From positions 310,001 to 374,000 of the forward strand of contig JBEWZL010000166.1 in NCBI GenBank assembly GCA_045837725.1: a DNA stretch of 64,000 bases. The letters run 5' to 3'. The notes under the pieces were generated by a model. The model saw only the letters and a list, made by a program, of their open reading frames with translations. It did no database searches and was not told the DNA's origin. Every line of letters begins with the position of its first letter. Position 1 is the stretch's first letter. Positions 3,122 to 62,634 of this stretch are shown piece by piece. The DNA comes from Vermamoeba vermiformis. Lineage: Eukaryota. Made by a program: the position numbers and the translations under genes.

Positions 3122-6100
3122 ATGCAAGGATCGAAAGGCAACGACGACAGTAAGATCTTGCTTACTTTAATTGATTAAGGGCTCTCCTTAATTGCATAAT
3201 TCAATATACATCGTATATATAATTAATCAAGCAATGCGGCAATTATTTGACGCCAATGTGTATTTTAAAAAATAATGCAATTAATTATTATTCTTTTCGG
3301 GTTTCAGAAACAAGCCAAGCGGAGCGCTTTTCGTCGTTAAGAAAGCTATTTAACAAGACCGTACTGAAGCCGAAGCAAGATGTGTTGGCTGTTCCGAACA
3401 GTACCAGTATTGTAAGAAATAATGATGACAACGAGGAAGACATTGCTCGCTATGAAAAGAAAGATGAAGGAGAGCGATTAGAGAAAGAGCTGTCAGATAC
3501 ATTAAAAGATTGGACATATAACACCAAGTTGTCAGTTGCTGTGGCAGGCTCTAAAGGTGTCGGAAAATCATTGTTAATTAACACATTGTTGGAGACGACC
3601 TATGAAGACAAGCAAGCAGCTCAACAAATGTCAATAGAGGACGATGCACCGAAGAAGCCTTATAGGCCACGTTCGAGCTATGGATTCAGCTCTTCAACGG
3701 ATACTGCCAATGACCAGATGAATGAAAGCAGCGAGGATTCGTCAGATGTAAGTGCTCCGATCTCTGGTTCTTTTGTATACTGATTATGATTTTCTGTCTT
3801 AGTGGTTGAACAACGCGTCCTCGAACCCTTATCGTCCTCGTTCTAATGTAAAGAAGTATAATCAAGCCACTGCCTATGCATTCGAGGGGTCGTTTGACAC
3901 GTCTTCGCCAGCTAAGCCTGCGCAGGAAATTGCAAAACCAGCCAACAGGACCCCCGTGGGCGGTCTTGGAATACTTGATGTATATAAGGACCTTGACAAA
4001 AGACTCCCGCAGAGGACGGGATCCAGCACTTCTTATAGTAAAGTTACAGCAATGGAAGAAGACGACGAGACTGACGACGAGGACGACTTCCAAATGCAGA
4101 TTAATAAGCCTAGAAAGAGTACATACAAGCGAGCCACAGCATATATTTTTGATGACAACGCCTCGCTCCAAACAACTTCAGCCCCGAAGAAAGAGTTCGA
4201 ATTTGACGTGCCTCAAATCGACAAGACATTTGAAATGGACGATGAATTCGTGCAACATATTGACTGGGAGAAGGAGCGAAATAATAAGAACGAATACAAG
4301 GACTTCTTGACAACGAATCAACTGAAGCCCGACGACAGCAAGCCATTCTTGTTGCCTCAGGGCGAGGGTGGTGCACCTGCTTTCATGCTACGTTACGGCA
4401 AGATACCCTGAGGCTATCATTAGTTTCCCTAAAGACGGCGAGCTGAGGCTGGCACTGTGGGAGTTACACGAGATAGCCATCGGTACGAAGCGACCTCAGA
4501 GCGAAGAACATTTGGCTACTCTGCAACGCCGTTATCGAAGGCTTTTAGGCCTTGCAGAGACGGCTCCTGTGCCACTACCCGACATCGCCGCACCACAAGA
4601 CTTGCCTTTGTTGCCAGAGGTCAAAGCATTGTTAGGCAAAAACTATCGCTTTGCTGGTCGTGGTCGCGACCCTGAAGAGGACCGCATTTTCATTCGAGAA
4701 AAGCTCACTGAGGTCTCGAAGAAGTACGGCGATTACATGTGCAGACTGATGGTGCGCGTGCCTGCAGGATTACTTGAAGGCAACAAGGAACTGATCGAAG
4801 TGTCTGGCGTATATAGCTCTGATTTGAACACCAAACTTGCTCTTCAAAATGCGAACTTGCTCATGGTGGCAGTTGATAGAGTAAGTACATAAGATGTTCG
4901 TTTAACAATCAAATCTAATCTTCTCAGAAACGTGGTATTACGGGTGATCTTGCTGCTTTGGTTAAGAACTCTGGCTTGGCAGAGAAGTTACTGTCTGATC
5001 CAGAGCAACACAAGGCAATCTTCATGGAGCTCGAAGAAAAGAGCAAGGTCGTGCTGCCGCACGAGATGCTTGACTCAATGGACGATGACAAGTTCCAACA
5101 ATTCAAGGAAGGTTTAAGCGTGCAATGGAAGCAAGTCATCAGACAGTCAATTCCAACGGCCCTCAACAACCCTAGTGCCGCAACTCAAATGCCATCAAAG
5201 AACAACCCGTTTGCTGCGTTCACACCGGAGAATATTGACAAGTTGGTGAACGAGCAAACAGAAGTTGTGTCAGTCAAGCCAGTGCTCTTCTCGGCCATCC
5301 ACAACAAAGAGAGTTTCCCATCGGAAATGCTCGAGGGTTTGAACGTGCGTGAAGTTCTATCGAAGACGGCAGTCCCATCGATCATTTCTGAAGTTCCAAA
5401 CCGTGCTATTGCAAAGGCAGCTAAGCCAATCAAAGAGCTTAGCAACATGCTGTTAAATCAAATTCATCACGAAGCTCAGATGTTGAAGACAATGGAAGAT
5501 GAGAGCGTATCTGTTGCACCGAGCGGACCTGGAGCACCACCTCAAATGTTCTACGAGCAAAAGATCGAACGAATGATCACGGAGTTTGGATTGACAGTCG
5601 CCCAGTTTAAGACGGACTTAGCGCATAGAGCAACTACCATCGAGACTGGCCTCGTCGCTAAAACAAAGGAGTTTGTTAAGCAACAAAACGAAGCCGTCTC
5701 AAGAAACATTAGACGAAGCACGAGCTCAACGGGACTTAACAACAACAATAATAACCGAAGCACGTCGCCGTTGCAGCGAGAAGAGGACTTGATGGAGTTG
5801 GAGCGCTTCGAGCACTTGAACATTGAGGAGTCAACGCCCGTGCCTATTATCGACATAGCAACGAGTGTTTGGAGAGCACTGATTCAAGAGATTCCTACCA
5901 AGATTGACAGAGTGCTTCTACAATCCACTCAAATGTTGCGTGAAATTTCATCCGTGATAGTTGCGTACTTGTCCGATTCGTCGATGCAGCACGATGAAGA
6001 GAGGAAGACGAAGTTACGCAAGTTGGATGAATTCTTGCGCCTATCACACGAAAAGGTAGTGCAGAGATTGAACGTGCTGGATCAAGTCTTCAGACACGAC

Positions 6101-9100
6101 CCTTCAAATCTGATCCGAGAAGCGTGTGTGGCGGCTTTACCAGTACAAAAGCGCAACCAACAAGTGCTCGAGTACGGCGGAGATGAGGCGTTGAAAGCAT
6201 CAGCCAATGTTAAAAAGAAGTTTGGCGACGTCGTGACAATCGCTCTTGACCACCTCGGTCAGCTAGAAAAAGATCTCATCAAAGTAATAAGGACTGTTTT
6301 GTTGGCTCTGAAGTCACCTAATTTCAGCTTGGCCCCTTCAGCCGTCTCTACTCTCACTGGACCGACTCCTGCAGCTCAAAAGACACCTGCTCTCGGGTTC
6401 AACAATCAATCCTCTGTCGTCAACATTGCGGTGCCTGGTGATATCGAGAATAGGAAGCGAAAGCGCACGGCTTCAGTGACCAACAACGACTCAGTTGTGT
6501 TTGACTCGATGGTGTTGCCGCAAGTACCTGAGAACCGACCGATCCACGCTATTCCTACTCCTTTTGGTCCCAGCAACACATCGCTCATACAACAAGCTTT
6601 CATGAATAATAACACCAACATCACCCCGCGACAATCTTACACAACAGTATTCAATCGAGACATTTACTCGCAATTGTCTTCGATGATTGTGCCAGACCAC
6701 ACTCAGTTCTTACAGTCCTTCGTGGACAAAGGTTATAGAATTGATGAAGTCAAGTACGACGGCAATCAACAATTCCGAGCCTTAGCCCATCAGGTAAGCT
6801 ACTTATTTCGTAGATTTGATTACTTACGCACGGGTTAGATTTACGGAACTGAGCACTCTCATGCCATTGTCCGAATGTTAATTGCGAGCGAGATCTTGGC
6901 CAACCCTAATTTGTATGAAAAGTTCATCGACATACCGGGAGTAGGCTTGCAAGAATACGTGCAGGTACGTTAAGGCTATCAGCTGGTAGTGCCACTCGTA
7001 CTAACCTCATACACTAGATTATGTCTCGTGAAGGCATGAAGGGAGACCACCTCACCTTAACAGCATTCGTCAACTATTATGGTGTTGACTTGATGCTCTA
7101 CTCACCAGCAATTGAACATCCTGTGCTTATTCAGTCGCGCAAGAACGTGGCCAGCCCCAAAACACTGCAATTGCTAGTGCTCGCAGACCATTACCGATCG
7201 TTGGTCTCACTCAAGGAAGTGTTGCTAAGGAACAAGCTCGAAGCGTTCCGCACACAAACGATGATGAAGCTGATGCACAATCAGGAAAACGACACATCTG
7301 AGGACAGGTACGTCTTGTTTACGAACGACATCGAAAAAAGCCGAAATCGGCGTTCAACTATCCGACATGGTGTAGGGGTTCAGCATATCCGCCTGTCACG
7401 CGGGTGACCCGGGTTCGATTCCCGGTGTTGGAGATTTCTTTTTTTACTTCCCGTCCTACCTGCACCTTTTTTTTGTTGCCTAGCTACAACCTATTTTATG
7501 CAATTTCAATCATTACAAAACTAAACATTTAATTTTTGTAATCGAACTGCACTTGGATACATACTAACCGTGATTTTAACAGTGATGACGAAGGTGATCC
7601 TGAACGCCTTAAGCGCCAACCAAAGCGTGCTCGGGCTTCTGACGATCCTTTACAACGGGTTGAAGAGCGAAGGAAGAAGGACCGCGAGAAGAAGATGAAA
7701 TTGCGCGGTTTAGGTCCTGCTAGTTTGAGTCAGCTCTGTTTAGAACGAATAGTGCACGCTATTGATTACTTTGAATCATTTTCTGGCAAGCTCCCACAAG
7801 AATTGCTCTACGAGTTGCTAGCAAAGCTTGGTGAGAATAAGAAACTGTCAGACAAGACAATCGCCAAAGTGCTGGATCCGTCGTTGCAGCGTTTTGTATT
7901 GAAGGGCCCTTGTGCTTCAGTGACAGATCTCACAATGTTCCAGCTCAGTCGGCGTTGCAAAGGACTGCAAGAGCTGCATTTGGTCAGTTGTTTTACGATA
8001 TCAGATCGCAGCATGCAACAAGTCATTCCGAACTCCCCTGAACTCGAGCACATCGTCATCAATAACTGCCCTCAAATAGGAAACTTGGTACGTTCCATTG
8101 CTTATCTCCTCGTTACTAAAACTAATATTTCTTTTGTTCAATAGACAATCCAAGAGATAGCTCGTAATTGTCCCAAACTCACAAGCTTCACATTGATCCA
8201 ATCTATGCAAGTTACAGACATAGCCATTCAAGAGTTGACTCTTGCGTGCCCCTTACTCGTCAATCTCGTCATCAGCAGATGTCCGCGCATCACTGACGTG
8301 TCGTTAATGTACCCACCTCGTGGTCTTCAAGTGTTCACGCTTGCAGATTGTCCGCAAGTGACCGATGCAACGGCAATGGCTCTAGCACGAAACTGCGGTG
8401 CTTCTCTTCGCGCAGTACGATTTGGACGTCACGTGATTGACGCGTCAGTTGACAGTCAAACAGCGGGCAGTAACCCTGGAGGCACAATGAAGATCACTGA
8501 TCAAGGCATCTCGTTGATTGCAGCAGCTTCACCAGGTCTCGAGGCCATTACCCTGACCGCTCAAAATGGTGATTTGGCTGTAGCTGCACTAGGTCATCAT
8601 TGCAAGGGCCTGTTGACACTCGATGCTACTGGCAGTCAAGTCACTGACCGAGCTTTTGTTGGCGACAATGGCATGCCAGCACAGAACAATCAACAGCCGG
8701 CACAGCTCTTAAATAACCAGCAAGGAGCGTTCATGAACAATCAACCAGGCCTCGTGTTGAACAATCAAGTCGGACCGATGATGCCAGCCCAACCAATGCC
8801 TCAACCACAGATTGCCATCGAAGCTTCAGTCTTCCCTCATCTTCAAAAGCTCGTTCTGGCGCATTGTGTGGCAGTTACAGATCTGACGATCTCAGCTGTG
8901 GCGCGTCACTGTCCTGACTTGAAACACTTGAATGTTGCACACTGCGAGCGACTGACCGACGAGTCAATCATTCAAATAGCAGAACGATGCCCTCGCCTCT
9001 CTATTCTTGATGTCACCAAGTGCACAAACTTGACTGACCGGGCAATCACAGCAGTGGCTCGGTATTGCCGTGATTTGAAGAAAATCATCATGCCGAACTG

Positions 9101-9848
9101 CAGTCTCGTGTCAACACAGTCACTTGAAGAACTGGCCGCTAATTGTCGCGAGCTTGTGCACGTGAACTTGTCTCGCTGTGATGGCGCGACTGACGGGTAA
9201 GTCATATTGATACTACAATAGGATCGATGAATATACTAATATCATTATAGTACCCTCGTCAAGTTGGGCATGAACTGTCCCTTGCTGCAAATACTAGAGC
9301 TCGAGGATTGCACGAACATCACTGAGAATGGCATAGTCTTCGTGACTAGCAAGTGCACGCGCATTACGGTGCTCAAGATTGGTTATTGTGCCTCACTGAC
9401 TGACAACGGACTGTTCCAAATCAGTCAATCGTGCTCTCAAATACGCGAACTAGACCTCTCGCAATGTCAGCAAATTACAATCGCAGGCTTGCAACGAGCT
9501 CTGGATAACTTGCCCGTGCTTAGCAAGTTGAATGTGATGGGCTGTCGTGGTGTAACGCGCGTCGAAGGAGCACATCCACCTGCTTTCTTGTCGCATCCAC
9601 CGCTTGAAGAGATCAACTTGTCATGGTGCCAAAATATCGACGACCAAGCTATTCTCGATCTATCAATGGGCTGTCCGAACTTAATCAAGGTGGATTTGGC
9701 TTGGTGCAATAGATTTGCCGGAACTTCCTTACCAACACTCGTTCAGCAATGCACTTCGCTCAAATATATCAATCTGCGTGGCTGCACCAAAGTATCGCAA
9801 CTTACAATGCAGTACTTGTCCTCTGCTGGCGTGTTCATCTGGCGTTAG
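3122..9848 (+). CDS. Large multidomain protein: dynamin-like P-loop region, helical region, OTU-like domain lacking the catalytic Cys, and a C-terminal cysteine-containing (FBXL/AMN1-type) LRR array
   Basis: VAVAGSKGVGKSLLINTLL (Walker A); VKYDGNQQFRALAHQ|IYGTEHSHAIVR...DHYRSL (OTU-like); many LxxLxLxxCxxITD repeats. GT-AG introns join the ORF pieces (e.g. 3150-3306, 7308-7582). The ORF pieces overlap out of frame near 4370-4411 (possible indel). The start codon is inferred. Confidence 0.75.
7361..7433 (+). tRNA. tRNA-Asp(GTC), intronless, located inside an intron of the host gene
   Basis: Acceptor TCCGACA/TGTTGGA; anticodon stem TCCGC/GCGGG with loop CT-GTC-AC (7395-7397); T arm CCGGG-TTCGATT-CCCGG; followed by an oligo-T Pol III terminator. 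Confidence 0.95.
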
Positions 9849-20533: not shown

Positions 20534-23183
20534 TTATTTCTTCGATGTTGCGTTAGACTCGGCAATTAGCTTTTCAAACTCTTTGGTTTCTTTGACGCCA
20601 AATTTGTACATTTCATTGCGCAGTTGTTGAACTTGTTCTGCATTACCATATTTGGCAAACACTTTCATAGCCAAGTAAAATGATCGACTGTTCGGCCTCA
20701 GATCTTGTTCGAGAATACTTTTCAAGCAGATCTGAACTTTTTCTTCGGGGTTGGGCAAGTGCGATGCCAATTCTAGCAACAAATTCTTTGTTTCCAAATT
20801 AGGAACGGACCACGTGTTCTTGCCGATCTCCTTCGAGAACTGCTCGGCCTTGGCGTACTCTCCATGGTCTATAAACAGCCGCAACATGACATTGTAACAG
20901 TTGATGTCTGGACCAATCTCGTCACTCGTTCTCAGCCAGTCAAACAAAGTCAACGCTGCTGCAAGATTGCGCGAGGTCTCTAACGCTGATTTGCGGGCCA
21001 AAAGTTGAATTTCCCGCGATACATTGAGTTTTTGCGCTAGTGATTGCAATTGTTCTAGGGTGCCATTTTGAGCGTGTGTTCGCAGCAACAATGACCAAAT
21101 TAGGACATTAGGCCTGATGCCTGACTCGAAGCCGTCCTCTGCTACTTTGATCACGTGGTCGTATTGCCCGATTTGGAAGTGCATGCGCATGAGACTGTAC
21201 ACGCCGTGCTGACCCAGTTTGAAGTCGTGTGACTTCATCTCGTCCACGACATTGAGCACGTGGGCCACTTCACCATTGTTCACGTGCAAGTCAATAAGTG
21301 TCTCGTAAAGTCCTGCGTCAGGGACAATATTCCTGTTCAACAGCTCGCGGTGCAATCTGTCGACACTGGCGAGGTCCTGCATTTGACACGTGTCAAAGGG
21401 ATATTTATACGACAATGGTGATAGTACTTACGTTGAACTGATAAGTGTACATTCTAATTAGGGCCATAAAATCACTCAATTGTGGCGTCATGTCCGTTGA
21501 TTCTAAAATCGTGTTCAGCATCGCTTCGGCCTCACTCGCACGACCATTAGCTGCACATAATAAGGACATAATTAGTATATATATATACTACTACTCGAGC
21601 TGTAATATCTTACTTGCGTATATCTTCAGGAGATATTTATAAATCGAGTAATTATGGTGCAGATCCAGCCTCTTCAACTCATCGAAAACACTGATAGCAG
21701 CCTCCAAATTATTCCGCTGATAGAAAGACAAAAATAGACTATACACAGTGTAGCTGTCTGGCGTGAGATTGAAATACTGCTTCATTATCTGAAAGATTTC
21801 TATTATTGCTGCATGATCCGCTTGATGTAGTGCCAAACGAAGCAGTTCTCGTAATGACGACTCTGGTACTGTAGCTAAAATAGTTATATTTTCTTTAGTA
21901 ATAGTACTTATAATAAACTCGATGATCTCGGGTGGATCTGGTGAGTTCAAAATTTTTCGTTTGGACTTACAAACAGTGGCAGCAATATCTCGCAACAATT
22001 TGAGTCCTCCTTTCAAATCACTGTTCTTAATATAATACAACATGACTTGTGACGCGAGAATGATGTCGTTTTTAATCTTAGTGCCGTCAATTGATTTGAC
22101 AATCTGCGTTGCTTCGTCCATATGGTTCTAATCAATAATTCATTAATAATTAATATATATATATAATTTTATGCTATAATAATTGTTTTAGAGATAATTA
22201 TGGTTCACAATAGAAAAATTAAGCAGCAATGCACGCGTCGAGGGCATGTTTGACACGTCTTTAAATAGCTATGTATGATATATATACTGATTGTATATTA
22301 ATATATTGTTAATACTTGCCAGGTGCACGAACACAGGCAATATAGCGGCGTGAATATATCCATCTGGCTCGATGCCACGCCGTACCAAGTCGTGGTACAA
22401 CTCGATGGCTGCTTCATAGTCTAATTGCTTCTTACGCTCTCTAATCCGCTTAAGATAATCGACCTACGATGACATTATATCAATACAAGTGTCGGCTAAG
22501 AGAACCTTTTCGATGGTGCCATTACAGATCGGATCCAATAAAAAATGAAAAATTTTTCTTAATGAATTTGAATTTGAAATTAAATTTAGAAATGGTACCT
22601 TAATAGACATAGGACTATTTGATTGCTGATTTTGTGGGTTTACAGTGAAGCTGTTGTTGACGTAATTAGATCCCGGTGAATTGCTTGGCTTTTTTTGAAA
22701 CAATTTCAACGTGTTTGAGCTCTTATTAATACGAGTCTTTTTATAGGCCTCTTTAGGCTCCTGAGGAGCTGAATTTATTGCGAATTCATCGAGTGGAATG
22801 TCTTCAGGTGGCTCGGTAGAGTATTTCCTGATCGAGGCTGCAAATAAATTTTTCTTTGCTTTCAAGCCTTTTGATCGTTCAAATATCTACAAAAAAATCC
22901 ATACAATTAATTTTGTAATTTTTGAAATTATTAGGAGATATTCAGGCCAGGTGATATTTTTAATGAAATGAAAAAATCATATTCTGAGCATTGATTAGCG
23001 CATGCGGTGATCAAATGATTTAGAATTATATCAAAATTATTATTGAGAAAGTGGATGTATCTCAATTTCGATTAATGAAAGATCGGATCCTGGACCAAGA
23101 AACCGACTCCAATATCCATGGTAACTGTTTTATTTACTCACCTTGGCCAATGTTCTCGAATAACAAACAGCTTGATTCGCCAT
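20534..23183 (-). CDS. Pentatricopeptide repeat (PPR) protein, probably mitochondrial
   Basis: 35-aa PPR-like units (GIRPNVLIWSLLL, IGPDINCYNVMLR, DLRPNSRSFYLAM). Basic N-terminus MANQAVCYSRTLAK|IFERSKGLK...SIRKYSTE resembles a presequence. Confidence 0.85.
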
Positions 23184-25049: not shown

Positions 25050-28000
25050 ATGAAGGTCTACTATACTTTGTACATATTTTTGTTTTGTTTTTTCTTGTTT
25101 GGCCAATGTAGCCATGTGGATGCCGTTACGAATACTGAAACAACGCACGCAAAGTTTTCAAGAGCCTTAGAGCATCTTATATCAACATCTGCGATTGGTT
25201 CAGAGAATCTCAAGAAGCGTTCGCAACTCGCGACTGACAGTGACAAGATTTGGATTTTCTTTGATTCCAAACTTCCTGATGGAACGCCTCCGGAATATCG
25301 CAACAAAGCATTATCCGATTTTAGAAATAATTATTTGACGAGTCGTGCTGCGAAAAGAAGAGCCAAGACGAATGCGGAAATATTAGACGATAATGATCTT
25401 CCAATATTCCCTTCATACCTCAGCGCCCTCAACCAAATTAAAGGATTGCAAATTCGATCGAAGTCAAATTGGTTAAATGCAGTATCTATTAATGTGACTG
25501 GCCCAGAGGTGTTGGAGCAGATTGCAGTCTTGCCCTTTGTCACTTTTATCGACCGCGTTGGCCAATTTAAACGTACTGTCGAATATAGTGAAGATATCGA
25601 AGCTGGTCATATTAATAATGACGATAAACGAGATGGTAAGTTAGTATAAAATAGCTCAAAAATTAATCAGATCCGCGTATGAGTCTGTCATCATACATAC
25701 GCTAACTGAATATTCTTAGTACACCAGTCAATTGGACTCGATTATGGCGATTCAAGGCCACAGCTAGACTTGGTTAAAGTCCCCGAAGCTCATCTGAGGA
25801 ATTTGACGGGGAAAGGAGTTGTCGTTATGATTATGGACAGTGGCTTTTATAAGGACCATGAATGCTTCCAAGACGCTGACATCATCGCTGAATGGGACTT
25901 TGTACAAGGTACGCAAAATTTGAAGCCTTACTAAGCGGAATTGAAATACGTACGGCATCCTGATCCAAAAACTCCGTTACACGAACTTAGACATGCTTAT
26001 GTATTCATATGACTTATATGGTGGTATTATAGAGGACGATAATGTTCAAGATAGAGACGGTGAAGGCCGAATGAGCCACGGAACTCAAGCTTGGTCGAAC
26101 ATGGGCGGCAGATGTCCCGGTACGTAACTTGAACCGATGCAGATAGCCATGTATTCATATTATATGAATAATAAGAGGGTCGTTGAAAGATTTACTTTGC
26201 CGGTCTACGAATTATAGATTCTAGTCTGATCCGTTCGATGAAATCAAAAGTTGAAAAATTATCGAGTTTTTCGTAATTTTGTTTTTAAGAATGTCGTTCA
26301 CATAATTTGTTAGTTTTGAATGAATATTCGTATCTTATATTATTTACGTTAGGTCACTTGTACGGCCCTGCTTATGAAGCAAGCTTTATTTTAGCCAAAA
26401 CTGAGGACATCCGCGTTGAAAATGTTGTGGAGGAAGATAGTAAGTAGAGTAACTTTAGAATCTTTGAAAGATATGATTTATTATCGACATTATCATAACA
26501 CAAATCTTACAACGCAAAGGCTGTTTAGAGGGATCCGGTGTGTATCGCACAGTTTCCGACAGCTTTTATTAATCTCTGATGATTGCGTTTTATTTACCGA
26601 TTAATTATATTATTATAGATGACGCTATTATTATAATTCGCCGTTCTATAATTACCACTTACTTAATGAAGGCAATCTTTAGATTGTTATGAAATTCTCT
26701 ATTAATTTGTAATTTCTCGCTTTAACGTGCCATCAGGTCAAAATTAACTATTATTCAAAAAAATCTTACTAATATACTAATTTACTATAGATTTTGTCGC
26801 TGCAATTGAATGGGGAGAAAGATTGGGCGCGGATGTGGTCAGCGCATCTCTTGGATACGATCAGTGGTATACTTGGAGTGATCTAAATGGTAATTATATT
26901 ATACCAGTATCTTATACTTTCAGGATTCATAAAATTTATTCGATTTACCTGCTCGTGATCTAAGGCTTTATGACTTTTCATTAATTTGAATTCAATCGAT
27001 TTAAATTTGAGCTCTTACACTCCCAATTTAATAAACTATAGTTGATATGCCCTAGTGACTCATAATATCGATATTTAGGCGTCAAGGCAGTGACTACAAG
27101 AGGAGTTAACATTGCCACTAAAAAAGGCCTTGTAGTGGTTGTGGCGCAAGGAAATTCGGGTAGTGGAAACAAAGTAAGTACTGTAGGTCATTTATATATC
27201 AGTATTGCCTATTTTTAAAGGCGAGGTAACGGTTTTGAGTACATCCAAACCCTTGCATAAATTTCAGCAATTCTTTATTCTTCCGTTTAAGTTAATATTC
27301 CCGATGATATTAGCATATTAGACAATAGGGAATATTAGTGCTTAATAAGCATCGCGCAGTGGATTGTACCCACTAGATCGTGAAATCTTAATTTTTCCGG
27401 CGCTGCTTTTAACTTGCAGATACTAATTATAACCAGCAATCAAAAGCTTATATTCTTTTTTTTAAATATCACGCAGTTATATTTAGTTTGTGACACTCGT
27501 CATCAAAATAGCATTAATTAATTTTGATAGATCCGCTGTGCACAAATGATGTGAGCGTATCCTGTGCACAAAATATTCGAGCTTTATCACGAGATACAAG
27601 TCGAATATTAATAGATAGATATCGATATTAATATCATTACTAGCACTCATATTCAGACCTTCTTTATCATTCATGATTGCTAATTTGCTTTGCATGATTT
27701 TTACGTGTGTTCGGTGGATCTTGCAAGATCCTCCGAAACACATCCAAATATACCTCTGTACTAATAACTGTGTCTTATTATAGGTCATGCCAGTACCTGC
27801 TGATGCATACCATGCAGTGGCGGTTGGTGCTGTCAATACCGGTGGAGATCTAGCGTCATTTAGCTCACTCGGACCCACATTTGACGGTACGTGCAGATCA
27901 GCTCCAGTGTTTTGTTTTGGTCACACAATATTAGCGTATAATATCGTTGAGATCTATAATATGCACACTAATCGTATTATCGAATAATCGATCACTGTTC

Positions 28001-29032
28001 GTAATGCGGGTGTGACAAAGTGATGCGGAGAGCGGGATCTAATCCAAAATTTTCACGCAGGTCGCATCAAGCCAGAAGTTGTAGCTCCAGGTGTTAGTAA
28101 TGTCGTGGCCTCTATTAACTCGCCGGAATCGTATAGCCGTAATAGCGGTACTTCATTCGCCACACCAATTGTTGCTGGAATTGCAGCGCTGATCGTGCAA
28201 GCACATCCAGACTGGACCAACTACATGGTACGTAATATCATATATTCTTATTATGTTGCAATGATACAGATCTATTTTGATTATGATCTTGTGCATCTCA
28301 TCCGGAGACGCATTTTGACACTTTGATTTTGACACTAGTCTATTTGTGACAGATCCGTGAAGCCCTAATGAAGAGCGCATCGCACAGCAGCACACCTGAT
28401 GTGAGGAGAGGTTGGGGTGTGGTCAACACGATTGCTGCCATTGACTACTCGTTCAGTGACAAAGGTATGAAATGTCATTGGATCTACTTGTCGGATTCCA
28501 TTCCGGTCTAACCGTGCTATTTCATTGTTAGCTTGTCTCGAGGGCTATTGCAAGTCATGTGACGCAGCACTTGGATGTGATTGCAAGGGTGATTTGTACA
28601 ACTTTTTCTGTGACGCACAACGCGTTGATTGTCGCTCGTTCTGTGAAGGCACGTGTGGCGATGACAATATTTGCAGATGCAGCAATAGAGTCGGTCGATG
28701 CGTTGTGAGTAAGTGTCACGTGATTTATTTGTCAGATCCACGCTCGAAACTGACCTTATGGCCCCATAGACATGCAAAGTAGCTGGCAGTGTCCGATCGA
28801 TTGGTTCAATGCAGGTGATGGCGTGTGTCACTGCGAGTGCGGCGCTGAAGATCCAGACTGCAAAAATCAAACATCGATTCACATGACCGTGCAACGAATG
28901 TACGGCTGTTCCGCAGGTCAGATCTGCAGTGCCGGTCATTGTGCGATCGCGAGCAATATGTCTAGTGTTGCTGTACGCACCTCAGTCTTGTGGGTTTTCT
29001 TTGCTTGGCTATTAGCCGCAGTATTAATGTAG
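25050..29032 (+). CDS. Secreted or surface S8 (subtilisin-like) protease with prodomain, Cys-rich C-terminus and hydrophobic tail
   Basis: Signal peptide; TGKGVVVMIMDSG (Asp), HGTQAWS (His), AQGNSG (oxyanion Asn), SGTSFATP (Ser); Cys-rich repeats; terminal hydrophobic segment. Confidence 0.9.
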
Positions 29033-29123
29033 ATAGAAATCGCTCATAGTGCATGAGCTATTCATGAAACAATAAAATATTCAGTGAAAAGAAGAACAGT
29101 GCTTTAATACGGAGTACTGATGA

Positions 29124-30496
29124 TCAATCGCTCCCGAAGTCCCTTCTGAATTCTGCTAACAGATCGAGTTCTTGTTGCGTGATCGAAGGCTTGATTTGGG
29201 TGAGAGCTAATTCCAAGTGTCGCTGCGATAATAATAGTCAGATAAGTGTATTAATGATAGATATGCCTAGTGTTTTACGTTTGTAATTTTGGGCACCAAC
29301 AACTTGTCTTGCGGTACATCGTTCAATTGCATGGGAGATCTCCCATTTGCGTCACCCGGAGAACACGGTGTGTAGTACTCTTTAACGTTGTTTGTGCCTT
29401 CTTCGAGTTGATCTGAAACGAGCTTGAAGTGCGTGGCATCCAACAACTATTTGGCACCGTTAAAAATTAGCCGGTTGGACCCCTTGACTTTTGATACTTA
29501 CAGTTCTGCAAATATTCATCGAAGCTTCGCGTACGAGGAGGGAAATTTCATTAGGACTGTAGTTGATGGTAGAATGACCTAATTTGGTAAAGTCTTCTTC
29601 AGTGAGATCGTTCGGCAGTGTCACCAAGTATTGCTTCAACAATGTGACACGCGTGTCAAGGTCAGGTAAATCGACCCATAGCCGTTGTTCAAATCGTCGT
29701 CGGACAGCGGGACATATGTTCCATGGCACGTCGCTGGCTGCTATAATATATACACCTTCCTTGCGTCGGTGAAAATGAACGAGAAATTGCACTTTGGCCC
29801 GGTTGTCAGGAACGGAACTTACTCCGTCGATTGATTCGATTTCATCAATGAATAGTATCGCCGGAGTATGGTCGTTAGCTCGAGTAAAGAAGTCTCGCAG
29901 CTTTCGCACTGCGTTTGCTTCTTTGGTGTACAGATCTGAACATTTAAGCGAAAAATAAGTGGCTTTGGCTTCAGACGCAATAACTTTTGCTAGCATGGAT
30001 TTATCTACGCCACGAGGCTTTAGAAATGTTAGAATTACGTTTAGAACTTAAAAAATAAGGAACTTACACCGTATAAGAGCGCTGCTCTGGGTAACCGATA
30101 TCTTCCAGTAAAGAGAAGAGGAAATTTAATGGGCAACAGGAAGTTCTCCATTAATCTATCTTTAACTTCTTTTGTACAATAGACTTCGCTCCATTGCACG
30201 TCTGGATAATATTGTAGATTTTCTAAATTGCGAAAATGGTCGATATTAATACTTTTAATTATTTTAGGCATCAGCTTACTTTTATAATGATATCTACAGG
30301 ATTTTCTGGCGTCATAATCAATATATTTGATTTTTTTGGCGTCCGATCTGCGTCTCCAAAAGTTGTCATTCGACAAAACCGTCCAAAATGCTTTGGCAGT
30401 TCTAGGAAGTATTTCTAGCAACGATTTATCATCACAAAACTCGCATATGAGTTCAATTAACTCCAAAGGAAGCGTTTGTTTGTGGTCGATCTCCAT
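29124..30496 (-). CDS. F-box + Vps4-like AAA ATPase, copy A (degenerate Walker A)
   Basis: LPLELIELICEFCDDKSLL...DNFWRRR (F-box); LPIKFPLLFTG; LYG|PRGVDKSMLAK; ILFIDEIE; AVRRRFEQR; ATHFK...TPCSPGD (Vps4 beta domain). Confidence 0.85.
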
Positions 30497-30564
30497 GACA
30501 CTTCAATCAAATTCGTTTTTCAAGCCGGGGACGCTTTTCTGGGAATGATTTTTATGCTACCAAG

Positions 30565-31962
30565 CTACTTTACAAAGTTTTCGGTGAACTCTTCAAACTT
30601 GGCTAATTCTTCTGGCGTAACTGTTGGTTTGACAGTATTAAGGGCCAGTTCAAAGTGCCTCTGTTAAAAATAAATATAATTCTCAATCGCTGAGTGCTTT
30701 CAATGAAAATAGAACGGACCTTTGTCATTTTAGGAACAAGTATCTTTGACGACGGAATGTCTTGCAATTTCATTGGAACCGGATCTGCTTCGTCAGCCGG
30801 GCACGGTGTTAAAAATTCAACGAGTTCTTCTGGATTTCCTTGTTTTTGAATTCTTTTAACGTATTTATAGTGCGTTGCAGCGGAGAACTGGCAATAGAAT
30901 TGAGTACAGATATTTTTTTGGAGTGGTGACTTGTGACACTTACGTCTTTAAGAGATATCATCGAAACCTCTCGGACAAGCATCGAAATATCATCGGAGCT
31001 GTAGTCCTTCGTAAAGTGGCCTAAATCTTTGACGTCATCTTCCGTGAGATCGTTGGGCAGTGTCGCCAAATGTTGTTTCAACATTTTGACACGCGTGTCA
31101 AGGTCAGGTAAACCGACCAATAGTCGTCGTTCAAATCGCTTTCTGGCACATTGGAACGAGCTTCCATGGCTTGTCGGTGGCGGCTACGACATAAATACCT
31201 TCTCTATGCATATCACATTGAACTATGAACTCCGTTTTAATTCGTCGATGTGACTCACTTTCACCATCAGGATGTCCATCGAGCAAGTCAATATCTTCAA
31301 AGTATAATATCGATGGTCCGTGTAGTTTTGCGTTTGTAAATACATCTCGTATTTTTCGTTCTGCATCTCCTTCCCACATGCTGAAGAGGGTTGAACACGA
31401 TTTTGAAAATAATGGAATTTTGGCCTCTGACGCTAGTGCTTTGACGAGCATATTTTTTTCTGGTCCTGTTGGCTGCATAGTGCATTAATTAATTAGCCTC
31501 GTGGGTTAGAACTTCGGTTTTTTTCTTACCCCGTACAAAAGTACTCGGAAGGGCAGTCTGGACGTCGTAAATAGTGATGGAAACTTGATAGGGAGGAGCA
31601 CGCATTCTCGTAATTGAAGTTTGACCTCGTCGTGGCCGATAATCTCGCTCCATTGCGCGTCTGGGTAATATTCGAGATTTTCTAATTTCGAATAATAGTT
31701 ATTTTAAAATAATTTTCGAGTTTATGGCACGCTTACTTTGGTAATTATACCTTATTGATTTATTAGCATCTTCTTTAATAAATTTAATATTTTTGGCGTC
31801 AGATCTTCTCTTCCAAAAATTGTCACTCGAAGTAATCTTCCAAAATACGTTGGCGACTTGAGGTAGGCTAACTAACAGTGCTATGTCGTCACAATACTCG
31901 CATATGGCTTCTATCAACTCTAAAGGAAATGATCCAAAGCTCGCAATGTGGTCTTTCTCCAT
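30565..31962 (-). CDS. F-box + Vps4-like AAA ATPase, copy B (1-nt frameshift near 31150: pseudogene or assembly error)
   Basis: FPLELIEAICEYCDD (F-box); LYG|PTGPEKNMLVK; ILYFEDID; ESESHRRIKTEFIVQ; LTPCPADEADP. The frame breaks after PWKLVP. Confidence 0.8.
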
Positions 31963-32474
31963 CACGATCAAAAAAACAAAAACTGCCGCAGTTCTTATGA
32001 ATAAAACAACTTCGATTAGTTATTAAAACAAGCGACAAAACAAAAGATTCTGTTCATCGTCGTAAGGCTCGCAGAAGTTTGGTCTGACAAGACAGTCTGC
32101 TTTTGACATGTGCCAAATGATGATACCGGCAGCAAACATAGTACATTGAACTTGACCAATGCAACCTCATCGGGGCGCTAGCTAGACACTTGAAGCTGTG
32201 GTGATCAGAGAACGAGTGATTGACAAAATAGGAATTTGCTCAAATTCGCGTAAATTCTGGAAACAAACTATACCACGAGTACAATTCACCGGCGCGTCTT
32301 ACCCAAAGACTCGCGAAATTTCAACTCCATTGCTCATCTACCCCGTAATTCACGAATAATTAAGTTTATTTGAACATCGCAACGTGGTTTCGAAGATAAA
32401 TAACCAGCAGCGTGCGATCATTTGAATCAACCAAAACAACAACACAACACAAAACCTCGTAATACTAATAAAAT

Positions 32475-33724
<1,250 letters not shown>

Positions 33725-33811: not shown

Positions 33812-35013
33812 CTATAAAACCAGCACTTCACTCTTCTTCAGATGCTTTACGCGTCTTTTCAAGGAAACTCTTTTATCAGTTTGAAATTTCTCGTCTAATG
33901 CTTTAGTGTCATCCATGTTAGGAATGATATTGTGGGCCAAAGCAACGATGGTTGCCAAGTGCCGCATGAGCTGCTGTCAAAAGTGACACGTGTCATTCGC
34001 TATTTCACTGCAAGCTGTTGACGTGCCACAACTTAGCCTTGTCGTTTAAGCTTTCTACCGTGGCAGTTGCCACAAGGCCAATGCTGAATAATGTGTCGGG
34101 CTTGTCGTAATTAGCTGAATAAAAAAAAGTAAGTTTTTTTGAAATTGAACGGATGTGGATCCTCCTGACCTTTTTCAACCACAAAGTCAAGTGTAATGAG
34201 ATATATGACACTGTCCGACTCTTTAACGACACTCATTAGACTAATATTGCTGACGATATTGCGACTCGCGTCCACGATATTAGGCTCGGTGCTGATCGAG
34301 CAATTTTGATTCCAATTCGCTAATAGTTCTTTGTACTGATTGAACGATTTGCTCCAGTTAATTCCTTGGTCTAGCCATGCCCTGGTAAAATAATATTTTT
34401 ATTAATTAATGTCTAAAAAATAAGCGGTACATCCGGCGCAATTTTTTTTTCAAAACCAAAAGATTTAGTTGATCATATTGAAATATATATTATAGTCATA
34501 ATATTGATCTTACTTCGGCAATGGCTTTGGTCGTTTCAATCCAGTAATCGTACTGACGCAATTGAATTTTCCGTTCTCGTTTCCTCGGCACCACACTATA
34601 ATATCGTTCTGCAATACAGCGCATTTGATTTTATCGTCGGTCAATATAAAAGGAGGCGTTTTTTTCAGCGTTACAAGCTGTGCAAAAGTCGTTTGGCGGA
34701 GCGTAATCCCATAAAAGGGAAATAATCGAATGCTATCTATTAAAAATTAACAATCTAGTATTTAATATTCATATTTTGTTGACTTACGTCGATAATATTG
34801 CTTCCAAGATTTATTTTCGGGTTTTAAGCTGAGATCAAGATTTTTTCTTGCGCATCTTCGTTTCCAAAAGCTTCCTTCATCGTTTAATATCCTTCTAAAT
34901 AGCTTTGATACTAAAGGCAATACCGTATACAATATCTTCTCTTCACACAAGTCGCAGATTAGCTCCCAAACTTCATTAGGCACGTTGGGCCAACCAAAGT
35001 CTTGAATCTCCAT
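33812..35013 (-). CDS. F-box protein with unrecognised C-terminal domain (about 5 exons)
   Basis: VPNEVWELICDLCEEKILYTVLPLVSKLFRRILNDEGSFWKRRC...KSWKQYY; downstream exons splice in frame to a stop at 33812. Confidence 0.7.
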
Positions 35014-38353: not shown

Positions 38354-40964
38354 TTAATCGTCCTCCTCTTTGTCAAGATCGGAGTAAATCTTGCACTTTG
38401 GAGGCAAGTTCTGCGGCACCTCCGTCAAAGGATTTTTGGTTACGTTCAGCAACGTTAGCTTCGTCAATGCTGACAAATCAGGCAACGAACTCAGTTGATT
38501 GCCATATACGAAGATAGACTCTACATCGACCAGCTTATTCAACTCCGCAGGCAATGAATTCAACTTGTTACTCGCCACATCCACTCGCGTCAACTTTGTC
38601 AAGTTTCCGAAGCTTGATGGAATGCTAGTGATTTCATTTCTATCCAAGAAGAGCTCCTCCAAGTTCGTCAAATTGCCAATGGAATCAGGCACGGACTTCA
38701 ACTCGTTGCAACTCAAAGTCAACTTCTTCAAGTTGGTGAGATTGCCGATAGACTCGGGCAATGCTGTATTGCACGGAGTTAGACCAGACTTGCAGCCATT
38801 GATATGTTATTATCGACGTACCTTCTATTTTGTTTCCATGGAAGCCGAGCTCCTCGAGTGAAGTAAAGAGTCCGATAGCTTCGTCAAGAGTACCTGCGAG
38901 TCTATTGGCTTGCAGGTTAAGCTTCTTCAAGTTCTTAAATGAAGCCAATTCCACGGGCAACGAGGTGAGTCTGTTGTCGCACAACTCGACTTCGGTAATG
39001 TCCTCGAGCGTGAACAGCGTAGGGTGCAACTTTTGGGCCTTGCAGTGAGACATATTGATAACATTCTTCGCTCTAAAGTCCTCCAATTGCTTCTCCGATG
39101 GCTCCCAGTTCTCAACGCCAATCTCATCAGCAATGCGTTGCTTCTCTTGACGCTCTTCCTCTGCAGCCTTCCTCTCCTCGACAGCGGTTTTGAACTTGCC
39201 TGTCTTGTCGTGATCGACCATGTAGTACTCCACGTAGATATCTAAGCGCTTATCTCCTTTAAGTTTATCAAGAAGAGCTTGCAAATATTGCTCGTCGTTT
39301 GTAATCTCGTAAAGTGCGGCTTGACACGCGTCACGAAGTTGTTCGTTTTGCAAACCATCGTGCAATGCCTTGAGAGCCTCCTCGTTATCTACGAAAGAGC
39401 GTGTTAAAACAATGCTCAAGTACTATTTGCACGAACTAACATACCCTTGAAAGCGACCAAAGCCAAGCAAGCTTCAGAATACAACCTGTCCTTGCCGATG
39501 GACATGAAGATCTCGTCATCGCTGTCACTATCCTCGCCACCTTGCGGAGCATCATAAGCGCTTGAGAGCAAGTTCAACAAGAGTTTAACACCGCGAGGAT
39601 CACCGAGTTTTCCAATAGCCTCGAGGAATGTGCATTGGGAACATTTGAACCTGCACAACAAGTTAGACTTTGTTCGCGTAATAACTTTTTTGAGTGCTTA
39701 CGTCTTGAGGCAGTAATCTTTGCAAGAATTCAAAAGCACGTGGGTGTTTGATGCCAGCCAAAGCACTAGCGGCACCCTTGACAGTGCACACGCTCTGATG
39801 ATTTCTTAAGAGTTCTATTAACAGGTCTGCAATATATTCATCGGTGGCAGCACGTTTTTCCAACAACTCGAATGACTTGGTCTCTGGAGGTCCGTGGTAG
39901 TGGTGCCAGCAGACTGCGGCCAAGAACTCGCTTGCCTTCGGCGAGGGGTCATTAGCAAGTTTTGTCTCGACACAGCCAAGTGCGGTTTCGTAGTTGAGCT
40001 CTTGTACGATTGCAGCGGTTTCGTCATTGTACTGGATGTGCTTGGCAAAACTAGGGATCCATGCGTAGAATTTATGCTTCTTCTTGAGTTCATCTTCTTT
40101 CTCAGTCTCGTGACGCTCTTTGTAGTATTTTGCCATCAACTCGTACGCAGGCGAGAAATTAGGCTGGATGTTGATAACTTGCTCGAGCTTCTTGAACGCG
40201 ACATCGTGTTGGTCTTGGCCCCAAAGACACTCAGCAGCTTTGAACAGCCATTTGGCATTATTGTCGGCCTGTTTAGCGAGAACAGTCAGTATGCTTCTTA
40301 AATTTTAGTACGCGTTCACATTACATGAAAATAATGAGAATAATCCGGAGCAAACTATTTGATGCATATCTACTATATAAACGTGATCACTTACGGCAAA
40401 CGCATCGTCGTAAAGCTGGATGGCGCTCTTAAAATCCTTCATGTCAAAGTAGCAAGCTGCCAATTGCGTGCGGAACTGTTCTTTGTATTCTGCGTCAGCT
40501 TCGTCGTCTCCAAGTGAATCAATAGCTGCTTTGTAAGCCTTAACTGCCCGTTCAAAGCGCTCCTTCTTCCAAGCTTCCTCTTCTTCGTCAGATTTGGTTT
40601 TAGTAGGGCCGTAGCAGACAGAATTTTTCTTGTAGATAACACCAGAACCTTCTTTGCCTTGTCGGTGAGCCAATTTTGCAATTTTCAGATTTAAATTGAT
40701 GTAAGCACCAACGACGTCGTCTGGAAATCTGCCATCAGCTGCCCTCTTTTGCTCCACGAGCGCCACGCCCTCAAGGTAGGCCTCGACTGCGCCATCAGCG
40801 TCGCCAAGAAAGTTTTTGAATTGACCAAGCACGTCGTAATGGTCTGACGTAAGTTCTGCGGGTGCATCTTGTTTCAGTTTGTCTACTAAGGTTTGTAATT
40901 CTGCCAAAGCCTCTTTAGGCTTGCCAGTTTGAAAAGTATTGATGATAGCGTCGAGAGGGTCCAT
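38354..40964 (-). CDS. TPR + HEAT/PBS-like + LRR repeat protein
   Basis: TPR-like helices (LAACYFDMKDFKSAIQLYDDAF); HEAT-like units (AASALAGIKHPRAFEFL, LEAIGKLGDPRGVKLL); LRRs (LPESIGNLTNLKKLTLSCNEL). Confidence 0.8.
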
Positions 40965-41506: not shown

Positions 41507-43285
41507 ATGCGTTGTTGCGGTGCTGGAGGTCCTCAACCCGATAAAGAAGAGGTTAGGGCGAATAAGAACATTAGCAAGCAATTGAAAAAAGATCAAGAAG
41601 ACTTCGAAAATGAAATGAAGTTATTGTTGTTAGGTAATTATTATGGATTAAAATCGCGTATATAATACGTATAATTTATTATTTGAAACAATGCGCAATT
41701 TTCTCAACGAATGCTGCGCATCGTTTTATTAAATTATTGGTTATTGTTCCTCAACCTCCCTGATGCTTCAAATCAATAATATTCATATTATTATAGGCGC
41801 TGGCGAATCTGGAAAGAGTACCATTGCTAAGCAAATGAAAATTATTCACATGAACGGTTTTACAGATGACGAGCGAAACAGTTACAAGTCTCTTATTTTT
41901 AACAATACCTTCCATGGTATGAAGACTATGGTTACTGCTGCTCGTGATTTGGGCATTGAGATTAAAGAAGACAAAAATAAGGTAATTGGGTTATCTCCAG
42001 ACTCCGAGATTGCATCGAGATTACGGTCACGACGTAGTCTTGAAGGCCTGAAAGTTCGTGTTTCTTATACTATTTGCTCGTAGGAACTTGCCAATACCAT
42101 TCTTACAAACGAGAAATACTTCACCGGCGAGATCACTCCAGCCATCGCAGCAGATATCACATCTCTGTGGGGTGACGCTGGAATTAAAGCCACCTTTGCA
42201 AGATCGTCCGAATATCAACTTGGCGATTCTGCCGAATAGTAAGTTAATCCGTATTTAATTGTAGTAGCCGTTTGGAATTGTTTTCGTTTCATCCGAAATC
42301 CCAACCAATTTTTTTGTGTGTCTCTAATTAAAGCGCACAACGGCATTAAATTAATTCATGAATTGCAAATTGCTCATTTATTGGTTATTCGAGTACATAT
42401 TTGTTGCAATTATCCGCGCAGTTTCTAGATGCCACTCTGTTTTGAAAACTCGTTACTGGACGTTAATTAACCCGCTCTTTTATTCCCGCAGCTACATCGA
42501 AAACGTGCAGCGTCTTTCCGAGTCTGGATATGTTCCTAACGATCAAGACGTGCTCAGATCACGTGTAATGACCACTGGTATTATTGAAACCGCTTTTGAA
42601 GTCAACAAAACCAGGTTCAGGTACGTATTTGCTTCATCTAATAATTACATTTCTATATACAACCGATACTCATCGCGAGTAAAGACTAAAAAGAGATATT
42701 TTACTCATATTGCTGATTTTAGACTTGTGGATGTCGGTGGACAACGTAGCGAGCGTAAGAAATGGATGCACTGCTTCACTGATGTCGCTGCCGTCTTGTT
42801 CTGCGTGGCGTTGAGCGAATACGATTTGAAGTTGATTGAAGACAACAAGACACCGCGTATGAACGAGTCGCTCAAGCTCTTTGGTGAGATTTGCAACTCA
42901 AGATGGTTCGTGGAGACTTCAATGATTCTCTTCTTGAACAAGTCCGATCTCTTCAAGGAGAAGATCGAGAAGGTTCCTCTTAACGTTGCTTTCGCTGATT
43001 ATACTGGTAAGTCTTCTGCTTTAAATTCGGGTGCTACATCTGACCTACTTTTATTCCTTTTTGGGCTTGTAATCTAATGCGTATTTATCTCTAGGCAAGC
43101 AAACCTTCGAGGATACCACTGAGTTCATTAAGAAGAAGTTTGTTGATATGAATAAGGACACTAAGAAGATCATTTACTGCCACATTACTTGCGCTACAGA
43201 TACGAACAACGTCAAGGTCGTGTTTGAAGCAGTCAAGGATACTGTGCTCCAGAAGGCCCTTAAGGACTCTGGTCTTGGCCTCTAG
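41507..43285 (+). CDS. Heterotrimeric G-protein alpha subunit
   Basis: [47 protein letters not shown]. Confidence 0.97.
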
Positions 43286-44177: not shown

Positions 44178-46898
<2,721 letters not shown>

Positions 46899-62200: not shown

Positions 62201-62634
62201 GTAAGTGTTTTGCTATCGTATGGCCAATCCTTGAAAATGACAACCAAGACGGATCCATTTTTTTATTTATTTCAGAAAATTAACAATATACTAACTTTAT
62301 GAATATATAGAATAGTACTTATGGATATTCAAATGCCAGTATTGTCAGGCTACGAGGTATGAAAGCCCAAATATTTGCGCGATCCGGATCTGATCCACGT
62401 AACTTTTAGGCTACGCAACAAATGCGCGAATATGAAAAACAACAAGGTCTAGAGAAAATTCCAATTATAGCACTATCAGCGGGAGTATTCAACGATGATC
62501 GAGAACGGTGCGTTGAATGTGGCATGAACGATTTCTTGGCCAAGCCCGTGCTCAAGCCAGACTTGGAGAAGTTATTGAAGAAGTATATTAAGGACGATAG
62601 TATTAAGGCTAACGAAAAGGCTAAAATATTGTGA
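59274..62634 (+). CDS. Multi-TM hybrid histidine kinase (HisKA-HATPase-degenerate REC-REC)
   Basis: FLASVSHEIRTPM|NGIIG; RLKQVLINLVHNAIKFT; IEDNGIGI; LFEPFFQ; GTGLGLSIS; ILVAEDNEVNQ...MDIQMP...MNDFLAKP. Confidence 0.95.
61203..61364. repeat. Intronic cluster of TGACACGTGTCA palindromes (3 exact, 1 variant)
   Basis: Exact copies at 61203, 61264 and 61353; variant TGACAAGTGTCA at 61305. Confidence 0.9.

Follow-up and report, generated by a model that had tools for sequence, protein, structure and literature searches.

The 64-kb stretch of Vermamoeba vermiformis contig JBEWZL010000166.1 analysed here (the window throughout) is eukaryotic nuclear DNA whose genes are broken by GT..AG introns of about 50 to 60 nt. 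It carries a tandem pair of minus-strand genes, copy A and copy B, in which an F-box exon appears to take the place of the MIT domain at the head of an ATPase body derived from Vps4. Such an architecture had been proposed from the DNA letters in an original prediction; it is real and recurs in an independent metagenome contig, L001. Vps4/SKD1 is a meiotic-clade AAA ATPase whose hexamers disassemble ESCRT-III. As far as we are aware, all ESCRT-III membrane scission is powered by this one ATPase, and its arrangement of MIT, AAA, beta domain and C-helix is regarded as nearly invariant across eukaryotes. The F-box, in turn, is a handle that recruits proteins to SCF ubiquitin ligases via Skp1. Judged from sequence, the combination of F-box and Vps4 cassette is a new domain architecture made from two known modules, and we tentatively read the encoded proteins as Skp1-bound adaptors.

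Gene models of the tandem pair

Our sequence-built models give each gene five exons and four GT..AG introns at homologous positions (57, 50, 55 and 56 nt long in copy A; 55, 57, 56 and 59 nt in copy B), with intron 2 of both copies splitting Walker A after its first G. Copy A lies at 30496-29124 (-) and encodes 384 aa in an intact reading frame, and copy B lies at 31962-30565 (-) and ends in TAG. Tandem paralogues had been predicted at 29124-31962, and these limits coincide exactly with the copy A stop and the copy B ATG. In the alignment, the AAA domain begins 3 residues past the end of the F-box exon. The exons of the two genes are as follows.

Copy B exon 1, 31737..31962 (-): F-box-like domain and conserved KS-x-R-Y-x-Y tail, with a phase-1 intron at its end
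Copy B exon 2, 31530..31681 (-): start of the AAA large subdomain (YYPDAQW ... LPIKFPSLFT ... LLYG)
Copy B exon 3, 30944..31472 (-): Walker A PTGPEKN, pore loop 1 SMWEGD, Walker B ILYFEDID, RRIKTEF, sensor-1 AATDKPW, RKRFE and start of the lid; Pfam AAA E=5.2e-18
Copy B exon 4, 30720..30887 (-): end of the lid and Vps4 beta domain (ATHYK ... TPCPADE ... ILVPKMTK); Pfam Vps4_C E=2.6e-4
Copy B exon 5, 30565..30660 (-): C-terminal helix and TAG stop; Pfam Vps4_C E=3.4e-8
Copy A exon 1, 30280..30496 (-): F-box-like domain
Copy A exon 2, 30068..30222 (-): start of the AAA domain (YYPDVQW ... LPIKFPLLFT ... LLYG)
Copy A exon 3, 29502..30017 (-): Walker A PRGVDKS, pore loop 1 without Trp, Walker B ILFIDEIE, shortened pore loop 2, sensor-1 AASDVPW and RRRFE; Pfam AAA E=3.3e-19
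Copy A exon 4, 29279..29446 (-): Vps4 beta domain (ATHFK ... TPCSPGD ... LLVPKITN); Pfam Vps4_C E=8e-7
Copy A exon 5, 29124..29222 (-): C-terminal helix and TGA stop; Pfam Vps4_C E=4.7e-4

The spacer from the copy B stop to the copy A ATG measures only 68 nt (30497-30564); intergenic spacers may be very short here, or the genes may be co-transcribed. On L001, about 150 nt lie between the F-box-Vps4 gene and the gene preceding it.

The Vps4-like body

Alignments identify the body of both copies as derived from Vps4. Residues 79-384 of copy A align end to end with Vps4 proteins (up to 41.7% identity, E=8e-79), and CDC48, PEX1 and FtsH-type proteins in the same match list align over the AAA core only (E of at least 2e-31). 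Pfam AAA and both halves of Vps4_C match both copies with the values given above, and no exon of either copy has a Pfam match to the MIT domain. When copy A exon 4, which encodes the beta domain, was compared with the PDB, all 12 matches at E<=1 were Vps4/SKD1 (best 3.7e-5), with an alignment that spans ATHFK...TPCSPGD...LLVP; the domain is also present in copy B. Vps4/SKD1 is likewise the best PDB match of copy A exon 3 among single-AAA-domain proteins (1.8e-32). The Vps4 hallmarks listed in the original prediction are all found in the spliced proteins, namely LPIKFPLLFT (A) and LPIKFPSLFT (B), RRIKTEF (B only), RRRFE (A) and RKRFE (B), the beta domain (ATHFK...TPCSPGD in A, ATHYK...TPCPADE in B) and the C-terminal helix.

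A phylogenetic comparison, which had been suggested as a check, points the same way. In a quick maximum-likelihood tree of 38 hand-picked rows (the three F-box genes A, B and L001, 22 of 63 Vps4-type matches and 13 of 57 other AAA matches), A, B and L001 form one clade (Shimodaira-Hasegawa-like approximate likelihood ratio test, SH-aLRT, 99) on a long stem, and this clade joins Vps4 apart from the 13 other AAA proteins with a support of 100. The stem measures 1.23 and the tips about 1.2-1.5 changes per column.

Copies A and B thus share with Vps4/SKD1 the large and small AAA subdomains, the Vps4-specific beta domain and the C-terminal helix, with an identity of about 41% for copy A. They differ in carrying an F-box where Vps4 has its MIT domain and linker, in having D or E for the Walker A glycine and Asp for the sensor-1 Asn, in the altered Walker B of copy B and the lost pore loops of copy A, and in their long branch.

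The N-terminal exon

With F-box proteins such as FBXW7, FBXO31 and Skp2, copies A and B share an N-terminal helical motif of about 45 residues that starts L-P-x-E-L/I; the difference lies in the body, which is here a Vps4-derived AAA cassette and not WD40, LRR, FBA or another usual module. The prediction that the N-terminus is an F-box is weak on the single sequences, with copy A below the Pfam cut-off and copy B without a match (values in the Discussion), but it holds for the family profile, for PDB matches and for L001. Exon 1 of L001 scores 26.0 bits against Pfam F-box-like (PF12937, cut-off 24.3 bits), and P0122, the library protein from the same contig, scores 24.6 bits. Within the group, exon 1 of copy A is 61% identical to that of copy B, which in turn is 54% identical to that of L001.

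A profile built from three N-terminal exons of the window (those of A, B and gene C, a neighbour described below) was run against 1.84 billion representative proteins and retrieved 42 of them at E<=1e-3. A Pfam scan of these 42 together with the 3 window sequences (45 in all) gave 32 matches to F-box-like and 15 to the Pfam family F-box (PF00646); two of the 45 have WD40 or MORN bodies. A family profile of 29 short members found 45 PDB sequences at E<=1, mostly F-box proteins solved with Skp1: FBXO31 (1.2e-7), FBXO44 (1.7e-7), FBXW7 (1.9e-7) and Skp2 (4.9e-4), with F-box chains down to 1e-8 and further matches to FBXO6, FBXO3, FBXW8, GID2, beta-TrCP and Cdc4. Four entries of this list (E of at least 0.0065) carry names of non-F-box proteins, and the top match is named just "expressed sequence."

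In its AlphaFold2 model (mean predicted local distance difference test, pLDDT, 84.8), computed from an input alignment that itself contains F-box proteins, exon 1 of copy A is a compact helical F-box fold with helices at residues 11-19, 23-32, 35-41 and 44-54. The leading Foldseek matches of this model in the PDB are the F-box domains of Fbw7, Fbs, FBXO31, FBXO3 and Skp2 from complexes with Skp1 (template modelling score on the query, TM(query), 0.5-0.63). The F-box call becomes convincing only because the family evidence, that is the profiles, the PDB matches and L001, is added to that of the single exons; the domain appears solid for the family and extends to A and B by transitive homology only.

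Conservation of the fusion

The profile matches include short single-exon proteins that closely resemble A and B, of which P0121, P0122 and P0124 are 74%, 50% and 49% identical to copy A exon 1. L001, the metagenome contig behind P0122 (3034 nt), is the one locus found by a metagenome scan with the exon-1 alignment. Its F-box exon (2181-2406) is followed by an intron at the same site and in the same phase as in A and B, an exon 2 homologous to theirs, an intron between the G and P of Walker A, and an AAA exon that extends as far as the end of the contig. The AAA part of L001 is 44-45% and its F-box 47-54% identical to the copies of the window. Because L001 has the same F-box/AAA exon structure and the same intron positions, the fusion is, by this comparison, conserved. 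Another metagenome scan, with exon 3 of copy A as query, gave 231 pattern matches, all of them unconfirmed.

These comparisons bear on the possibility that the fusion is an artefact of the gene models, in which case the F-box exon would be a small gene of its own, or a relic, and the AAA exons would be transcribed alone. Library proteins of this exon type are all short single-exon calls, as this explanation would have it, but that is also what single-exon calls on short contigs are expected to give. Exon 2 of copy B has no in-frame ATG, so its start codon must come from exon 1, and the single Met that precedes Walker A in copy A and L001 sits well inside the domain. The AAA body thus relies on exon 1 for its start, exon 2 having no usable ATG in B and none near its beginning in A or L001. 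Furthermore, GT..AG introns match in phase and site across A, B and L001 despite protein identities of only about 45-54%, and the V. vermiformis transcript-derived protein P0139, from a sister F-box family, has its F-box exon spliced to a downstream exon. We consider an artefact very unlikely on these grounds. Intron 1 of copy A (57 nt) is in frame, and a reading that retains it would also stay open.

The F-box-Vps4 architecture is absent among the 120 AAA matches listed and the 42 F-box-profile matches, and a word-index search of longer proteins with the exon-1 alignment gave no F-box-Vps4 protein, which is weak evidence. At the level of the listings consulted, the protein libraries and the literature searched hold no description of it, in line with the earlier statement that this architecture is not known from the literature.

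Catalytic motifs

The spliced proteins confirm the drift of Walker A from GPPGTGKS to GPRGVDKS and GPTGPEKN that had been noticed in the DNA, as well as the ILYFEDID reading of Walker B in copy B. The motifs compare as follows.

Walker A: Vps4 GPPGTGKS; copy A GPRGVDKS; copy B GPTGPEKN; L001 GPCGTGKS
Walker B: Vps4 IIFIDEID; copy A ILFIDEIE; copy B ILYFEDID; L001 IILLEEVD
Sensor 1: Vps4 Asn; copy A Asp; copy B Asp; L001 Asp
Pore-loop-1 Trp: Vps4 present; copy A lost; copy B kept; L001 kept
Pore loop 2: Vps4 present; copy A 4 residues and the RRIKTE motif lost; copy B kept; L001 kept
Arginine-finger triplet: Vps4 RRR; copy A RRR; copy B RKR; L001 RKR

The residue before the P-loop lysine, normally Gly, is acidic in both copies (D in A, E in B), and the Walker B acids are swapped in copy B (ED for DE) and read EE for DE in L001. 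Losses in the two copies are partly complementary, affecting the pore loops in A and the Walker B order in B. The sensor-1 change and the loss of MIT are common to A, B and L001, and damage to the P-loop is seen only in A and B. Since Walker A of L001 is canonical, P-loop degeneration in A and B is probably a derived state, and the F-box-Vps4 family does not seem to be uniformly "dead." The idea of weak or dead Vps4 protomers stands for A and B as far as their degenerate motifs go, and does not extend to the Walker A of L001.

An alternative that takes its cue from L001 is that these proteins are working, or at least ATP-binding, AAA remodellers in which an F-box swapped for MIT recruits the ATPase to Skp1/SCF. 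Such a remodeller would unfold or extract ubiquitylated substrates or remodel the ligase itself, with A and B as weakened or regulatory subunits in a ring around an ATP-competent paralogue. Besides its canonical Walker A, L001 retains both pore loops (1 and 2). The pore-loop-1 Trp and RRIKTEF persist in copy B, as do the DE of Walker B and the RRR fingers in copy A, and the complementary losses would suit mixed rings. However, all three genes have Asp at sensor 1, A and B have an acidic residue for the P-loop glycine, and Walker B reads EE in L001 and ED in copy B for DE. From what is generally known of AAA ATPases, such changes should cripple hydrolysis, and we regard a remodeller as unlikely.

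Intactness and selection

In the window, copy B contains one surplus base at about 31147-31150 that shifts the frame between PWKLVP and ARKRFE and puts RKRFE and all that lies downstream in another frame. In the DNA run X1, one contig is a base short at 31148 (depth 273.2) and the other is a base short at 31150 (depth 285.1). Either deletion restores the frame, and the X1 contigs lacking a base make up the full depth (273.2 + 285.1 = 558.3). The other X1 indels (30243, 30913 and 30924) are all intronic. Because every X1 contig is without the surplus base, copy B is probably intact, and the base itself is probably an artefact of merging two alleles, or else a strain difference.

The site at 31147-31150 reads as if two alleles, distinguished by an adjacent TG/GT swap, had been merged into one consensus, and similar collapsed-allele errors may occur elsewhere in the window. 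Over 29050-32050, X1 has two alleles of roughly equal depth (about 285 each) that differ from the window by up to 4-6% in some 300-nt pieces; from this equal depth and divergence, we take the genome to be strongly heterozygous or polyploid.

Polymorphism was counted from 40 listed of 129 single-letter differences in X1 and in X5, a water metagenome whose pieces are 90-100% identical to the locus over 22 of 30 bins. Fifteen of the 40 are non-coding; the remainder comprise 10 synonymous and 4 non-synonymous changes in copy A and 6 and 5 in copy B. Synonymous changes are in excess (16 versus 9 non-synonymous, with about 22% synonymous expected by chance; binomial p=6e-6), and the ratio of non-synonymous to synonymous polymorphism (pN/pS) is about 0.11 in A and 0.23 in B. 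Between A, B and L001, pairwise non-synonymous divergence (dN) is about 0.37 and synonymous divergence (dS) is saturated at 1.65-2.4, giving a dN/dS of about 0.16-0.22. The duplication of A and B is old, since the three genes are roughly equidistant; sequence blocks identical in A and B include LPDLDTRV and TLPNDLTE. By these measures, copies A and B are under purifying selection, and the dN/dS comparison, suggested along with the prediction, does not bear out neutral decay of both copies.

That A and B are decaying pseudogenes from a Vps4 duplication would account for their degenerate catalytic motifs, for the frameshift of copy B in the window and for the fact that no transcripts were found. 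We find this hardly credible, given that copy A is intact, that no X1 contig carries the copy B frameshift and the remaining X1 indels are intronic, and that low dN/dS, the synonymous excess among polymorphisms and the identical blocks between the copies all point to constraint. For copy B taken singly, pseudogene status was rejected because the X1 contigs all lack the frameshifting base.

Genomic context

The N-terminal exon type of A and B also occurs in a neighbouring gene with a different body.

Gene C exon 1, 34789..35013 (-): same F-box subtype and same phase-1 intron position as in A and B; the body is not AAA

It was matched by copy A in tblastn (E=3e-7) and reaches 24.1 bits against Pfam F-box-like (E=3e-5; cut-off 24.3). 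Gene C as a whole (34005-35013, -) encodes a small F-box protein; no Pfam family matches its later exons (LFPFYGITLRQTTF...), and it has relatives among V. vermiformis transcripts (P0139 and P0140) and metagenome proteins (P0123, P0125 and P0136). On L001, a gene-C-like gene (1051-2030, +) is the immediate upstream neighbour of the F-box-Vps4 gene; in the window, gene C is found upstream of copy B with an actin gene in between. Because of this upstream position in both the window and L001, gene C is a possible donor of the F-box exon.

The actin gene (32581-33724, +) has introns and lies on the strand opposite to gene C and copy B; its product departs at a few places, e.g., RPRYTG, from what we take to be the usual wording of actin. 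A G-alpha exon at 42355-43074 (+) is identical to a V. vermiformis transcript (EukProt) in 136 of 141 residues, counted outside an in-frame intron of about 34 codons, and this match places the organism in Vermamoeba or near it (Amoebozoa). A viral origin of the locus is ruled out by its introns, the neighbouring actin gene and this Vermamoeba-like G-alpha exon. Scans of viral contigs with the exon-1 alignment and with copy A exon 3 found no relative, and the notion of a viral Vps4 as a partner, which had been raised as an option, finds no support at this cellular locus.

On the other side of the pair, open reading frame (ORF) fragments at 27787-28326 (+) contain GTSFATPIVAG, presumably the serine motif of subtilisin-type proteases; cysteine-rich ORFs come next (28525-29032). 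Large ORFs elsewhere in the window (8145-9197, 38688-39422, 20537-21427, 45773-46795 and 61331-62299) have Pfam matches that comprise two LRR proteins, a PPR protein, an NSUN2-like pre-PUA domain and a weak response-regulator receiver domain. No Pfam family matches the 639-aa ORF at 4919-6835.

Discussion

Our favoured explanation, which we hold tentatively and at somewhat less than an even chance, is that A and B represent a small family restricted to a lineage of Vermamoeba-like amoebae and made up of Skp1-bound adaptors with a Vps4 body that are not ESCRT-III motors and have Vps4 rings or Vta1 as partners. In the sequence, the F-box exon with its phase-1 3' border stands in for the MIT domain and linker and is joined directly to the Vps4 ATPase cassette, the same exon type heading the otherwise unrelated gene C. 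The motif changes suggest that A and B would no longer act as motors that disassemble ESCRT-III. As Skp1-bound adaptors, i.e., substrate receptors of SCF, they would instead employ the Vps4-like module as a binding platform. The beta domain is the Vta1-binding element of Vps4, and because arginine fingers, beta domain and C-terminal helix are kept, Vps4-type ATPase rings or Vta1 would be the likeliest partners. ESCRT ATPase activity would in this way fall under ubiquitin-ligase control, though partner and direction of control are guesses.

Several observations weigh against this explanation. For the F-box, exon 1 of copy A reaches only E=0.014 and 15.6 bits against F-box-like, below the cut-off of 24.3; exon 1 of copy B has no F-box match in the single-sequence Pfam scan; and all Foldseek matches of the copy A model have E of at least 0.057, with 0 of 68 at E<=0.001. 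For the Vps4 body, the rows of the tree included no katanin, spastin or fidgetin, and the tree does not place the A/B/L001 clade with respect to the Vps4 crown. The P-loop lysine and two Walker B acids are kept in A and B, and L001 retains GPCGTGKS; A and B may thus still bind nucleotide. A full-length F-box-Vps4 protein is missing from the protein libraries, the V. vermiformis transcriptome included. The RNA runs X11 and X13, which bear the same species label (about 1.85 billion letters each), gave 0 reads on the stretch and are no test of expression. One X5 contig (depth 3.4) has 2- and 3-base deletions in copy A exon 4 and could be a broken relative or an error. Finally, in proteins that lack the MIT domain, descent is the only link to ESCRT.

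A more specific proposal, which goes back to the original prediction, is that of a dead Vps4 decoy tethered to SCF. Crippled Vps4 protomers on SCF would use their arginine fingers, beta domain and C-terminal helix to enter Vps4 rings or bind Vta1; the ESCRT ATPase would thereby be capped or poisoned, and the ATPase or its cargo would be tagged for ubiquitylation. From the sequence evidence this is a reasonable hypothesis only, and we think it rather improbable in this precise form. Hydrolysis-dead Vps4 mutants, in which the Walker B Glu is changed to Gln, are used as dominant-negative substrate traps and offer, by analogy, a laboratory counterpart of the proposed natural poison or regulatory subunit. 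They share with A and B a Vps4 body that presumably assembles and does not hydrolyse ATP, but they are artificial and keep MIT and a normal P-loop, whereas the changes in A and B are natural, multiple and combined with an F-box. The amoeba is host to many intracellular parasites, and the decoy, if true, would amount to a built-in switch on membrane scission, possibly directed against them.

It is also conceivable, though we judge it quite improbable, that the F-box binds Skp1 without an SCF ligase and that the proteins are trafficking adaptors and not ligase subunits. A solid family-level F-box joined to a module descended from an endosomal ATPase would suit such a role, and the yeast F-box protein Rcy1 acts in endosomal recycling while bound to Skp1 without an SCF ligase. 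There is a published precedent for an F-box protein in endocytic recycling (PMC2175155). Against this, sequence does not tell SCF-dependent from SCF-independent F-boxes, and A and B have no similarity to Rcy1 outside the F-box.

A and B belong to a conserved, selected paralogue family in which the ESCRT-III-binding MIT domain has given way to a ubiquitin-ligase handle and the nucleotide site has been degraded. On the favoured explanation of Skp1-bound adaptors with a Vps4 body, they would show how nature can turn an AAA pseudo-ATPase into a binding module, and SCF ligases may be linked directly to the ESCRT ATPase through them, as regulators of a new kind. Even on a modest reading, the Vps4 cassette would add a new substrate-binding module to the F-box repertoire.

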